The notes: a model not told the origin generated them from the sequence alone. A stretch of 37,210 nt of DNA from a virus (IMGVR_UViG_2713896798_000012); one strand, 5' to 3'; positions 10,556 to 30,988 are shown, counted from the stretch's first letter. Numbers and translations: made by a program.

Positions 10556-10888
10556 GTACTCCTGACGACAGAAGTTATTAAATTCCTTCTCCGACTGTTT
10601 AAGCTCCGCATTCTCTGCCGCCAGCACCGAAAACTTCTCGTGTGCCAACTTAACAGCCGCATCAGCCTGCTTAATTGACTCAATCGCTTTCTGTTGGTCT
10701 TCGGCCAGCTCCGCTAAATTAGCCTCCAGTTCGGCTATGCGTTCGTTTAATGCATCTCGTTCATCCAGTAGCGCCAGCACAACCTGAGGTGTGACTTTCA
10801 TACGAAATGCCAGCAATTTTTGAGGCGTTGCTACTGTTTCAATTGCTACTGCCGCCTCACGCAGTGCCTGATAGTCAATTTTGCTCAC
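10556..10888 (-). pseudogene. 5' portion of an Ea22/Ead-like gene truncated by IS copy A
   Basis: Track ORF 10541-10888 runs 15 nt into the IS terminal repeat (…FCRQEY|VSVN*); N-terminus MSKIDYQ.LRE matches the paralog at 30985. Confidence 0.75.
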
Positions 10889-11085
10889 TGGTTGCCTCCT
10901 TTGCGCAACATCGCATTCAGATATTTGTTGTCATTAACAGAACCGAAACTCTTTCTCTTAAGCAATTCCTCTCTCGAGGGCATTGGCTTTACGCGTTGGC
11001 GAATAATCATTTCTGCCGGAAGAATGCCGGGATTGTATGCAAGTCCTCTCATGGTAAATTCCTCAGTCATTACTGATAGCGCCAT
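10885..11085 (-). CDS. Hypothetical small protein (C-terminus …RKGGNQ)
   Basis: 66-aa ATG ORF; its stop overlaps the next start as in the ea22-like tandem genes. Confidence 0.4.
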
Positions 11086-11359
11086 AGCGTGAGCGGTAAT
11101 TACGCAGGCGCGGGTCGATATATTCAGGGAATTTGTCTATTGTCGCTTTTCGCAACGGTCTCATTGCTGTTTCGTTTGTTCGGTCCTTCTCCTGTTTTAG
11201 CGCGAGTTGTATATCGCGTCGGTACATCCGTTCTGCTTTTGTTTCTGGTGTCAGAGCAAGAAACGCGTCGAAATTGTTTTTGATATTTTCCAGCACCTCC
11301 GCCTTGGAGCTACCGGAGCAGTTGCGCGGGTCATCCGCACCATACAGAGGCGCTGGCAT
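11063..11359 (-). CDS. Hypothetical protein
   Basis: 98-aa ORF in the early-left operon orientation. Confidence 0.4.
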
Positions 11360-11382
11360 AATGGGAGCCTTATTTTCAGTAA

Positions 11383-11970
11383 TCAGAAAGGAGGGTAATC
11401 GTTCTGGCTGTAACCATAATCATCTGCATGATTATGGCTTACGTTTTTAGAGCGATTGTCTTTATCTTTGAGGCTGGCAACCATGTTGGCGATAGTTTCT
11501 GGTTGCTTGCCTTCTGCCTTTTCTTTAAGGGTTTGACCTGTTTGTGCAATAAACGGGATGCGTATTTCCATCTGGTAGCTGTCTGCGCCAGTCTTTTTGT
11601 TTGTGGTTAATACTTTCTGGAGCACTAACCCGATTTTCTTTCCATGAAATTCAGGTGCAACAAATTTACTGGCGGAAACCATATGTTGCGTTAATTGTCC
11701 AATCCCGGCACACCCCATCATGGCGTGAACGACATTTGCGCCAAATTTGTTTTCCGTGCCGTCATTTTTCTGAACACAGACGCTAAGATACTGGATTTTA
11801 CGTCCGTCGTCGGATTCTCCAGAAAACTCAATAAATTTGGCTCCTTTTTCTGATTGCTTGAGTTCTGCTTCAGTAATGGTAATTATGTGAGCGCCAGTTT
11901 CGTTAATAAAACCACCTTGCCCTGCGGTCAGTGCTGCTTCTTCGTTATAAGTAAAAATTACGTTGCTCAT
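11383..11970 (-). CDS. Hypothetical phage protein (195 aa), possible partner of the adjacent ATPase
   Basis: ORF with upstream RBS-like sequence; no family confidently recognised. Confidence 0.5.
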   Translation of the reverse strand: MSNVIFTYNEEAALTAGQGGFINETGAHIITITEAELKQSEKGAKFIEFSGESDDGRKIQYLSVCVQKNDGTENKFGANVVHAMMGCAGIGQLTQHMVSASKFVAPEFHGKKIGLVLQKVLTTNKKTGADSYQMEIRIPFIAQTGQTLKEKAEGKQPETIANMVASLKDKDNRSKNVSHNHADDYGYSQNDYPPF

Positions 11971-11974
11971 GCTT

Positions 11975-28236: not shown

Positions 28237-28662
28237 ATGGAATTACAGGACTGGCGAAAAGAACCTCGTAAAAACTATTCGAATGAATTCAAACTTCGTA
28301 TGGTGGAACTGGCATCACAACCTGGAGCTTGTGTTGCACAGATTGCACGTGAAAATGGCGTCAATGATAATGTTATTTTCAAATGGCTCAGGCTCTGGCA
28401 GAACGAAGGGCGTGTTTCGCGGCGTCTTCCGGTAACGACCTCTTCTGACACTGGCGTTGAATTATTACCTGTAGAAATAACGCCGGATGAGCAGAAAGAA
28501 CCTGTGGCGGCCATTGCGCCGTCTTTATCCACTTCCACTCAGACCAGAGTCAGTGCCAGTTCCTGCAAGGTGGAATTCCGTCACGGTAACATGACGCTGG
28601 AAAATCCATCGCCAGAGCTGCTCACAGTGTTGATCCGTGAACTGACCGGGAGGGGAAGATGA
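28237..28662 (+). CDS. tnpA: IS66-family TnpA
   Basis: Identical to 10045-10470. Confidence 0.8.
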   Translation: MELQDWRKEPRKNYSNEFKLRMVELASQPGACVAQIARENGVNDNVIFKWLRLWQNEGRVSRRLPVTTSSDTGVELLPVEITPDEQKEPVAAIAPSLSTSTQTRVSASSCKVEFRHGNMTLENPSPELLTVLIRELTGRGR

Positions 28663-29009
28663 TCTCACTCCCATCAGGTACCCGTATCTGGCTCGTTGCC
28701 GGCGTTACCGATATGCGTAAATCCTTCAACGGACTGGGAGAACAGGTACAACATGTGCTGAATGATAATCCCTTCTCCGGTCACCTGTTTATCTTCCGTG
28801 GCCGACGGGGTGACACCGTCAAAATTCTTTGGGCTGATGCTGATGGTCTGTGCCTGTTCACCAAACGCCTGGAGGAAGGCCAGTTTATCTGGCCTGCGGT
28901 ACGTGACGGCAAGGTATCCATTACCCGCTCGCAACTGGCAATGCTCCTCGATAAGCTGGACTGGCGTCAGCCAAAAACATCCAGCCGTAACTCACTGACA
29001 ATGTTGTAA
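28659..29009 (+). CDS. tnpB: IS66-family TnpB
   Basis: Identical to 9698-10048. Confidence 0.85.
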   Translation: MISLPSGTRIWLVAGVTDMRKSFNGLGEQVQHVLNDNPFSGHLFIFRGRRGDTVKILWADADGLCLFTKRLEEGQFIWPAVRDGKVSITRSQLAMLLDKLDWRQPKTSSRNSLTML

Positions 29010-29039
29010 AAAACTCCTGACCGCATTATAAAAACGGTC

Positions 29040-30653
29040 ATGAGTCAGAAATACCTCATTCGCATCGCAGAGCTGGAAAGGTTGCTCTCTGAGCAGGCTG
29101 AAGCCCTCCGTCAGAAAGACCAGCAACTGAGTCTGGTTGAAGAGACGGAAGCCTTCCTGCGCTCTGCACTGACACGTGCCGAAGAAAAGATCGAAGAAGA
29201 TGAACGGGAAATAGAACATCTGCGGGCTCAGATAGAAAAACTGCGCCGGATGCTGTTCGGTACCCGTTCTGAAAAACTGCGTCGTGAAGTTGAACTGGCT
29301 GAGGCTCTGCTGAAACAACGTGAACAGGACAGCGATCGTTACAGTGGGCGGGAAGACGATCCTCAGGTTCCCCGCCAGTTGCGACAGTCGCGCCATCGTC
29401 GTCCGTTACCGGCACACCTTCCCCGTGAAATACACCGCCTGGAGCCAGAAGAAAGCTGTTGCCCGGAGTGTGGCGGTGAGCTGGATTATCTGGGGGAAGT
29501 CAGCGCTGAACAGCTGGAACTGGTGAGCAGTGCCCTGAAAGTGATCCGCACAGAACGGGTAAAAAAAGCCTGTACAAAATGTGACTGTATTGTTGAAGCA
29601 CCGGCGCCGTCCCGCCCGATAGAGCGTGGTATCGCGGGCCCCGGATTACTTGCCCGCGTGTTAACGGGAAAATACTGCGAACATCTGCCACTGTATCGTC
29701 AGAGTGAAATCTTTGCCCGCCAGGGTGTCGAACTGAGCCGGGCCTTACTCTCCAACTGGGTTGACGCGTGCTGCCAGTTAATGACACCGGTGAATGATGC
29801 CCTGTACCGTTATGTAATGAACACCCGCAAGGTTCACACTGATGACACACCGGTAAAGGTACTGGCACCGGGTCAGAAAAAGGCGAAAACAGGGCGTATC
29901 TGGACGTATGTCCGGGATGATCGCAATGTGGGTTCGTCATCTCCTCCAGCGGTCTGGTTCGCGTACTCGCCGAACCGGCAGGGGAAACACCCGGAGCAAC
30001 ACCTCCGCCCCTTCCGGGGTATCCTGCAGGCGGATGCGTTCACAGGTTACGACAGGTTGTTCAGTGCAGAACGTGAAGGTGGTGCACTGACAGAAGTTGC
30101 GTGCTGGGCCCATGCCCGGCGAAAAATCCACGATGTATACATCAGCAGCAAAAGTGCGACGGCAGAAGAAGCCCTGAAGCGAATCAGTGAACTGTACGCC
30201 ATCGAGGATGAAATACGGGGATTACCGGAGTCAGAGCGTCTTGCCGTCAGGCAGCAGCGAAGCAAAGTGTTACTGACGTCGCTGCATGAATGGATGGTGG
30301 AGAAGAATGGTACGCTGTCGAAAAAATCCAGACTGGGCGAAGCGTTCAGCTATGTACTGAATCAGTGGGATGCCCTCTGTTATTACAGTGATGACGGTCT
30401 GGCGGAGGCGGATAATAATGCTGCGGAAAGAGCGCTTCGTGCAGTCTGTCTCGGAAAGAAAAACTTTATGTTCTTTGGCAGCGATCACGGCGGCGAGCGT
30501 GGAGCACTGTTGTACGGGCTGATCGGCACCTGCCGTCTGAACGGTATCGATCCGGAAGCGTATCTGCGCCATATCCTGAGCGTACTGCCGGAATGGCCTT
30601 CCAACCGAGTTGACGAACTCCTGCCATGGAACGTAGTACTCACCAATAAATAA
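29040..30653 (+). CDS. tnpC: IS66-family transposase TnpC
   Basis: Identical to 8054-9667. Confidence 0.9.
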   Translation: MSQKYLIRIAELERLLSEQAEALRQKDQQLSLVEETEAFLRSALTRAEEKIEEDEREIEHLRAQIEKLRRMLFGTRSEKLRREVELAEALLKQREQDSDRYSGREDDPQVPRQLRQSRHRRPLPAHLPREIHRLEPEESCCPECGGELDYLGEVSAEQLELVSSALKVIRTERVKKACTKCDCIVEAPAPSRPIERGIAGPGLLARVLTGKYCEHLPLYRQSEIFARQGVELSRALLSNWVDACCQLMTPVNDALYRYVMNTRKVHTDDTPVKVLAPGQKKAKTGRIWTYVRDDRNVGSSSPPAVWFAYSPNRQGKHPEQHLRPFRGILQADAFTGYDRLFSAEREGGALTEVACWAHARRKIHDVYISSKSATAEEALKRISELYAIEDEIRGLPESERLAVRQQRSKVLLTSLHEWMVEKNGTLSKKSRLGEAFSYVLNQWDALCYYSDDGLAEADNNAAERALRAVCLGKKNFMFFGSDHGGERGALLYGLIGTCRLNGIDPEAYLRHILSVLPEWPSNRVDELLPWNVVLTNK

Positions 30654-30691
30654 GCGTCAATACGGTGCTCCGTTGACGCTTACAGGAGTAC

Positions 30692-30988
30692 TACGGTTGG
30701 GAGGACAACTTCACGGAAACCCCAGCCACCGACGCTTTCCTGGCTGAAATTCGTGCGGCGGCTCGCAACGAGGGTATTAACTATACCGCAAGCCGTCTTG
30801 CTGCTGCTTTCAATCACGGATTTATCAATAAGTCTTTGCGTGAAGTTTTCGACGTTACACGCATGATTTTGTCAGCGAAAGAAGAGTTGGCTAATGAAGC
30901 GCATCCGATTGATGGCCTGTCTGGTGAATATGCGGAGAAATCCCTTGAAGAATGGGCGGAACAGATTCGCAAAGGAGGAAACCAGTGA
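30692..30988 (+). pseudogene. 3' portion of the Ea22/Ead-like gene whose 5' portion lies at 10556-10888
   Basis: Open frame from the IS boundary to TGA at 30988 (…EQIRKGGNQ*); joins in frame to the 10888-10556 fragment once one copy of the 8-bp duplication is removed. Confidence 0.7.

Follow-up and report, generated by a model that had tools for sequence, protein, structure and literature searches.

Ea22 of phage lambda and its variants in Stx phages, which are known relatives of the gene considered here, are encoded in the exo-xis region of the early-left operon (PMC7093339, PMC10834534). Ea22 genes are mosaic, and the described protein, a tetramer, has a short N-terminus, a coiled coil and a variable C-terminal domain (PMC10834534). 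A pro-lysogenic role is reported for lambda and Stx-phage Ea22. Inversions bounded by mobile elements have been described for IS26 and Tn4401 (PMC4471558): inverted copies of the element bracket an inverted segment, the members of each 8-bp duplication pair lie on different copies and are inverted relative to each other, and interrupted genes can be rebuilt.

The window analyzed here, a viral stretch of 37,210 nucleotides (nt) named IMGVR_UViG_2713896798_000012, contains an ead/Ea22-like gene whose two halves each adjoin a different copy of the insertion sequence (IS) ISEc23. The window has two inverted ISEc23 copies with split target duplications, both interrupted genes can be rebuilt in frame and are identical to intact genes elsewhere, and the re-inverted sequence is collinear with that of an IS-free relative, TL-2011a. 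It shares with the IS26 and Tn4401 cases the inverted element copies, the divided 8-bp pairs and the rebuilding of interrupted genes. Unlike those cases, it involves an element of the IS66 family, which is not known to transpose replicatively within one molecule, and it lies in a prophage and not in a resistance plasmid; ordinary homologous recombination explains the structure equally well.

The two halves of an ead/Ea22-like gene

On the minus strand, the open reading frame (ORF) that starts with GTG at 10888 reads ...FCRQEY, then enters the terminal repeat of ISEc23 copy A (GTAAGCG at 10555), from which it takes the residues VSVN and a stop (Table 1). One copy of the octamer AGGAGTAC forms the end of this 5' half, and on the plus strand, directly past ISEc23 copy B, the sequence from 30684 reads AGGAGTAC and then TACGGTTGGGAG. 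Joining the reverse complement of 10556-10888 to 30692-30988, with AGGAGTAC counted once, gives 630 nt and a stop-free run of 209 codons, with neither a frame break nor a mismatch at the join. The translation across the join reads ...QEYYGWEDNFTETPATDAFLAEIR...EQIRKGGNQ followed by the stop, and the next Ea22-like gene starts with a GTG (30985) that shares bases with the TGA of the rebuilt gene (30986-30988). An earlier note on this DNA, made from the sequence alone, had described the truncated ORF, its entry into the IS repeat after FCRQEY and this in-frame join with its stop/GTG overlap, and our analysis reproduces every position and residue of that description.

The rebuilt gene exists in one piece elsewhere. 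A megablast search of the 630-nt join against 5426 complete Escherichia coli genomes finds it intact at 100% identity in E. coli 95NR1 and ERL05-0623; another nine genomes match it over 80% or more, and in eight of these the match is complete, at ~98% identity. The phage collection contains it at 100% identity in TL-2011a. In 95NR1 and ERL05-0623 it is annotated as a 630-nt coding sequence (CDS), WP_016241159.1, with the RefSeq name ead/Ea22-like family protein, and TL-2011a labels the identical 630-nt CDS a hypothetical protein (AEW24526.1). Exact gap-free identity extends to both sides of the join, over 1409 + 1767 nt in 95NR1, 1409 + 654 nt in ERL05-0623 and 1409 + 328 nt in TL-2011a. Additionally, the exact protein of 209 amino acids (aa) is recorded on 406 public contigs, and the full-length members of its cluster are 209 aa long. 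That a 209-codon gene predated the insertion, as the earlier note had concluded, is thus borne out by identical intact 630-nt CDSs in three records, which also supply the intact homologs of matching length and C-terminus that the note had named as its check.

WP_016241159.1 and AEW24526.1 agree with the rebuilt gene in their 630 nt and 209 codons, in the C-terminus ...EQIRKGGNQ and in their neighbors, which are a DUF2737 gene upstream, with a stop/start overlap, and an Ea22-like gene downstream, with a 4-nt overlap. In the window, by contrast, ISEc23 follows codon 111, and the two halves lie 20 kb apart on opposite strands. In ERL05-0623, 95NR1 and TL-2011a, the intact gene comes after cIII-kil-...-anti-RecBCD-DUF2737; an excisionase gene lies downstream in ERL05-0623 and TL-2011a, followed in ERL05-0623 by the integrase gene. 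This is the exo-xis position in the early-left operon of a lambdoid phage, and the window keeps the same neighbors on each half.

Chance is excluded by the probability of two exact 8-bp matches at defined positions, ~2e-10, and by the 100% identity between the joined sequence and intact genes elsewhere. Mosaicism and variable C-terminal domains are described for Ea22-like genes (PMC10834534), and the tandem paralogues of the window have a 24-nt start motif in common; the two fragments might, on these grounds, come from different Ea22-like alleles and be in frame by appearance only. We give such a coincidental or mosaic joint practically no credence and reject it, because one intact gene, present in three independent records, matches all 630 joined nt at 100% identity, the exact identity spans kilobases over the join and the exact protein is found on those 406 contigs. 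The second junction pair, in the nin region, behaves likewise.

The rebuilt protein scores 42.1 bits (E = 1.7e-10) with the Pfam family Ead_Ea22 (PF13935), above the curated cut-off of 27; its residues 25-93 fall on profile positions 57-114 of 139. Among the PHROG profiles, its residues 1-209 align to phrog_368 positions 1-239 of 239, and the NCBIfam scan assigned no family to the Ea22-like proteins. Because the Ead_Ea22 match covers a limited part of the profile at 42 bits, the rebuilt protein is a divergent paralogue of lambda and Stx-phage Ea22. As in those proteins, the Ead_Ea22 signature lies in the N-terminal half, and the C-terminal part has no family match. The position of the Pfam match, together with weak coiled-coil-type matches, suggests the described layout of a short N-terminus, a coiled coil and a variable C-terminal domain. 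By analogy with the described proteins, a pro-lysogenic role may be considered for the rebuilt protein as a lead only.

Both tandem Ea22-like genes open with the same 24-nt motif, CAGTGAGCAA(A/G)ATTGACTATCAGG, at 10867-10890 on the minus strand and at 30983-31006 on the plus strand. Within the motif, the TGA of the upstream gene overlaps the GTG start, and shuffled sequences give an expectation of 0 matches. The motif resembles a conserved module boundary and could act as a recombination joint among Ea22-like paralogues.

Table 1. Positions of the IS copies, target duplications, split genes and related features in the window.
Feature	Position	Strand	Description
ead/Ea22-like gene, 5' half	10556-10888	minus	codons 1-111, 333 nt; GTG start at 10888
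ead/Ea22-like gene, 3' half	30692-30988	plus	codons 112-209 and stop, 297 nt
Truncated ORF, present state	10541-10888	minus	115 aa: 111 native codons, then VSVN and stop from the ISEc23 end
Next Ea22-like paralogue, intact	30985-31578	plus	197 aa; Pfam Ead_Ea22 136 bits, profile positions 1-138 of 139
ISEc23 copy A	8024-10555	minus	2532 bp; tnpA 10470-10045, tnpB 10048-9698, tnpC 9667-8054
ISEc23 copy B	28152-30683	plus	tnpA 28237-28662, tnpB 28659-29009, tnpC 29040-30653
Target duplication AGGAGTAC, one copy	10563-10556	minus	adjoins the end of ISEc23 copy A
Target duplication AGGAGTAC, second copy	30684-30691	plus	adjoins the tnpC-proximal end of ISEc23 copy B
Target duplication ATAAATGG	8016-8023	plus	adjoins ISEc23 copy A; second insertion site
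Target duplication ATAAATGG	28144-28151	minus	adjoins ISEc23 copy B
133-codon nin-region gene of unknown function, 5' part	28048-28143	plus	96 nt; split by the second ISEc23 insertion
133-codon nin-region gene, 3' part	7718-8023	minus	306 nt including stop
Inverted segment	10556-28151		17.6 kb; opposite orientation to both flanks relative to TL-2011a
Third IS66-family element	23141-25581		2441 bp; inside the inverted block, nin region; ORFs of 133, 115 and 512 aa

Split duplications and the inverted segment between the ISEc23 copies

The two ISEc23 copies are exact reverse complements of each other (2532 nt, 100%) and make up the one long inverted repeat of the window. Repeat arms of 2535 nt were rejected as the length of the IS, because the extra 3 nt reach into the flanks with one mismatch and the identical core is 2532 nt. 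Many E. coli genomes carry annotated ISEc23 elements that match these 2532 nt over their full length with 100% identity. By Pfam, the three proteins encoded in each copy are HTH_Tnp_1 (141 aa), TnpB_IS66 (116 aa) and an IS66-type DDE transposase (537 aa); the transposase matches DDE_Tnp_IS66, zf-IS66, LZ_Tnp_IS66 and DDE_Tnp_IS66_C, and scores 452 bits with the NCBIfam model transpos_IS66 (cut-off 180). The gene order tnpA-tnpB-tnpC with an IS66-type DDE transposase places the element in the IS66 family. Both of its terminal repeats open with GTAAGCGT, and the two ends agree at 17 of their first 24 positions.

An 8-bp target duplication is the norm in the IS66 family (ISfinder). In the window, each of the two 8-bp pairs, AGGAGTAC and ATAAATGG, is divided between the ISEc23 copies in reverse complement, and each becomes a direct duplication once the segment between the copies is re-inverted. 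Specifically, the second insertion site has ...ACTGATAAATGG as the last letters of the left flank of copy A, up to 8023, and ATAAATGGCAACC as the first letters of the copy B flank, taken from 28151 along the minus strand. At the empty sites of TL-2011a, each octamer is present once.

Across the ATAAATGG pair, a second gene is rebuilt. Its 5' part (28048-28143, plus strand) followed by 8023-7718 (minus strand) forms a 402-nt ORF. Its translation, 133 aa long, equals that of TL-2011a CDS 18714-19115 (annotated AEW24545.1) in every residue, and the nucleotide identity is exact across the join over 733 + 154 nt. The exact 133-aa protein is found on 999 contigs and matches phrog_1511 over positions 1-133 of 133. 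This second junction pair, evidence that the earlier note had not used, gives independent support to the inversion.

The third IS66-family element of the window is only ~64-68% identical to ISEc23 and is flanked by a direct 8-bp duplication, GATTATAT, at 23133-23140 and 25582-25589. Its empty site is present in TL-2011a, and its junction is absent from the complete E. coli genomes. The element acts as an internal control, showing the look of an unrearranged IS66-family insertion in the same DNA.

The orientation of the segment between the ISEc23 copies was compared with TL-2011a (JQ011316.1), a partial genome from E. coli O103:H25, Norway, for which a literature search returned nothing. In local blastn alignments, 10556-28151 matches TL-2011a in one orientation, and 2749-8023 and 30683-33192 match it in the other. 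At each boundary, the TL-2011a intervals of the adjoining alignments share 8-9 nt, corresponding to the duplicated octamer. The inverted segment holds the early-left genes (DUF2737, anti-RecBCD, HNH endonuclease, a Sak4-like protein, the cIII/kil region and N), the cI-cro-cII immunity region, the replication genes and most of the nin region to Ant.

An IS-free, re-inverted sequence was assembled from 1-8023, the reverse complement of 10564-28143 and 30684-37210 (32,130 nt in total). Single alignments to TL-2011a run over both joins of this sequence, one of 7847 nt with 99.92% identity, the other of 3919 nt with 99.54%. The rebuilt sequence has its genes in the canonical lambdoid order, which the annotated Stx2a prophage of ERL05-0623 also shows: lysis genes, nanS-p esterase, tRNAs, Q, NinH, NinG and Roi, then the remaining nin region, the replication genes, cII and cro, and last cI, N, cIII/kil, anti-RecBCD, DUF2737, two Ea22-like genes, an excisionase-like gene and the integrase. 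The window thus combines inverted IS copies and split reverse-complement duplications with an IS-free relative in the opposite orientation; uninterrupted targets are present in TL-2011a for both joins and in 95NR1 and ERL05-0623 for the ea22 join. The inversion, for which the earlier note had taken the ea22 join as independent support, gains further support from the split ATAAATGG pair, the rebuilt 133-codon gene and the collinearity of the re-inverted window with TL-2011a.

The window and TL-2011a are 99.5-100% identical over most shared blocks, and both have the Q-tRNA-nanS-p region without stx. Distinct from the window, TL-2011a lacks the inversion and all three IS66-family insertions, and its two ISEc23 target sites are empty and intact. 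They also differ in two modules, at window positions 11972-13171 and 15008-16618. The first contains an HNH endonuclease and a Sak4-like annealing protein in place of a TL-2011a segment. The second, between N and cI, contains ORFs of 185 aa and 250 aa that match ERL05-0623, where they are annotated hypothetical and DUF1828, and not the kinase module of TL-2011a. These module differences are ordinary lambdoid mosaicism.

Routes to the inverted arrangement

Very probably, the window derives from a TL-2011a-like lambdoid prophage that received two ISEc23 insertions and in which 17.6 kb was inverted, with homologous recombination as the favored route. In this scheme, the intact 630-nt ead/Ea22-like gene of the exo-xis region would have taken ISEc23 after codon 111, duplicating AGGAGTAC, and a second, identical ISEc23 would have entered the 133-codon nin-region gene in the opposite orientation, duplicating ATAAATGG. 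The 17.6 kb between the copies would then have inverted, preferably by RecA-dependent homologous recombination between the 2.5-kb inverted copies. This would leave one copy of each duplication per IS, in reverse complement, and would place the halves of both genes beside different IS copies. We infer this sequence of events and the recombination route, and likewise that the segment is oriented in the cell as it is in the record. The route through two insertions and homologous recombination is favored because it needs no assumption on IS66 biochemistry, the literature on the mechanism having yielded nothing decisive.

Several observations weigh against this proposal. The junction between the ea22 5' half and ISEc23 is absent from the 5426 complete E. 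coli genomes, the phage collection and IMG/VR, as well as from the GTDB representatives and the JGI metagenomes, and the junction between ISEc23 and the Roi side is absent from the complete E. coli genomes. The expected intermediate, with a single insertion or with both insertions un-inverted, was not found in the collections searched. Additionally, the 100% identity of the copies fits a very recent one-step duplication as well as two insertions from one source. The 115-aa truncated product, whether written with V or with M at its start, has no exact match in the public collection, and none of the papers that mention both ISEc23 and inversion describes the present event.

The identity of the copies bears directly on an alternative in which ISEc23, already at one site with an ordinary direct duplication, transposed replicatively and intramolecularly into the other by attack on the opposite strand, in trans. 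Such an event would yield the second, inverted copy, the inversion and a new 8-bp duplication that is itself inverted, with one copy per IS, in a single step; its product would be exactly the observed structure of inverted copies with 8-bp pairs split in reverse complement, and for IS26 and Tn4401 such a pathway has been described together with its signature (PMC4471558). Because the ISEc23 copies are 100% identical over 2532 nt and a relative with two un-inverted insertions is absent from the collections searched, we regard the one-step route as quite possible, if short of probable. However, the literature search on IS66-family transposition gave no paper settling whether it is replicative, homologous recombination between identical inverted copies of 2.5 kb calls for no special assumption, and the final sequence is the same for both routes.

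The orientation of the segment, in turn, could be a matter of assembly. The prophage might carry two simple insertions with the segment between them mis-oriented in the record, or both orientations might occur in the culture with one of them reported. A unique segment between identical inverted repeats longer than the reads assembles either way, the alternative orientation makes every junction an ordinary insertion like that of the third IS, and the inverted joins are unconfirmed by a second record in the collections searched. On the other hand, short-read assemblers usually break at 2.5-kb repeats and do not bridge two of them, so that the contiguous 37-kb window suggests long reads or finishing, and inversions between inverted IS copies are common and real. 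An artefact of this kind is, in our judgment, unlikely. The earlier note carried neither of these caveats, the one-step intramolecular transposition or the assembly orientation between identical 2.5-kb repeats. Recombination of two insertions, one-step transposition and mis-oriented assembly are inseparable by sequence alone, and the gene split holds whichever of these three histories applies.

Prophage context and predicted consequences

The window is part of a lambdoid prophage close to TL-2011a, with a Stx-phage architecture and no stx genes. Where stx usually lies, between Q and the nanS-p esterase, the window has three tRNA genes and no stx (4389-5611); these are Arg-tct, Arg-tcg and one with a CAT anticodon called Met, whose counterpart in ERL05-0623 is annotated tRNA-Ile. 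In ERL05-0623, ~1.65 kb with stx2AB stands against ~370 nt in the window, and TL-2011a is like the window. On the minus strand at 32354-33517, a 387-aa ORF runs antisense to DUF551 and neighboring exo-xis genes. It has no Pfam match, and its ends strongly match PHROGs of unknown function, phrog_38841 (residues 1-126) and phrog_23824 (residues 306-387); the annotation of a related prophage in strain SJ2D has no gene on the strand of this ORF. The tyrosine integrase gene occupies 36041-37210 on the minus strand, and in the related SJ2D prophage the integrase gene adjoins a tRNA-Arg gene. Because the window ends exactly at the start codon of its integrase gene, it looks like a prophage fragment cut at the integrase, with the lysis genes at its left end.

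Both split genes would be inactivated. The truncated Ea22 product (115 aa) would retain the N-terminal half with the Ead_Ea22 match and lose the C-terminal half. The inverted block has cI, cro, cII and N and should thus carry both early promoters, so that the inversion would swap the distal arms, placing Roi-NinG-NinH-Q and the late region downstream of pL and the arm from the ea22 3' half through exo-xis to the integrase downstream of pR. Minus-strand transcription via N (14767-14384) would pass through the ea22 5' half, the co-directional ISEc23 copy A, Roi, NinG, NinH, Q and the late region, and plus-strand transcription from cro (17485) would pass through ISEc23 copy B, the ea22 3' half and the exo-xis-integrase arm. 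A promoter and terminator scan of 7600-11000 gave sites no more numerous than in shuffled sequence.

It is conceivable, but very doubtful, that the identical inverted ISEc23 copies make the 17.6-kb immunity-and-early block reversibly invertible, giving a population mixed in induction. In the orientation seen here, both IS copies are co-directional with the incoming N-antiterminated transcription, so that on this reading the prophage could still be inducible, with altered timing.

The gene is known and named, the IS is known, and split duplications around inverted IS copies are textbook; only this instance is new. For annotation, an apparent truncated Ea22-like protein and an unannotated stretch are the halves of one known gene, and the odd gene order, with Q and the late region beside the ea22 5' half and the integrase arm beside Ant, is one IS-bounded inversion and not a new architecture. 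The window adds an ISEc23-bounded inversion in a lambdoid prophage, with three IS66-family insertions that its closest relative lacks. It raises no long-standing question and provides a further example of IS elements eroding and rearranging E. coli prophages.

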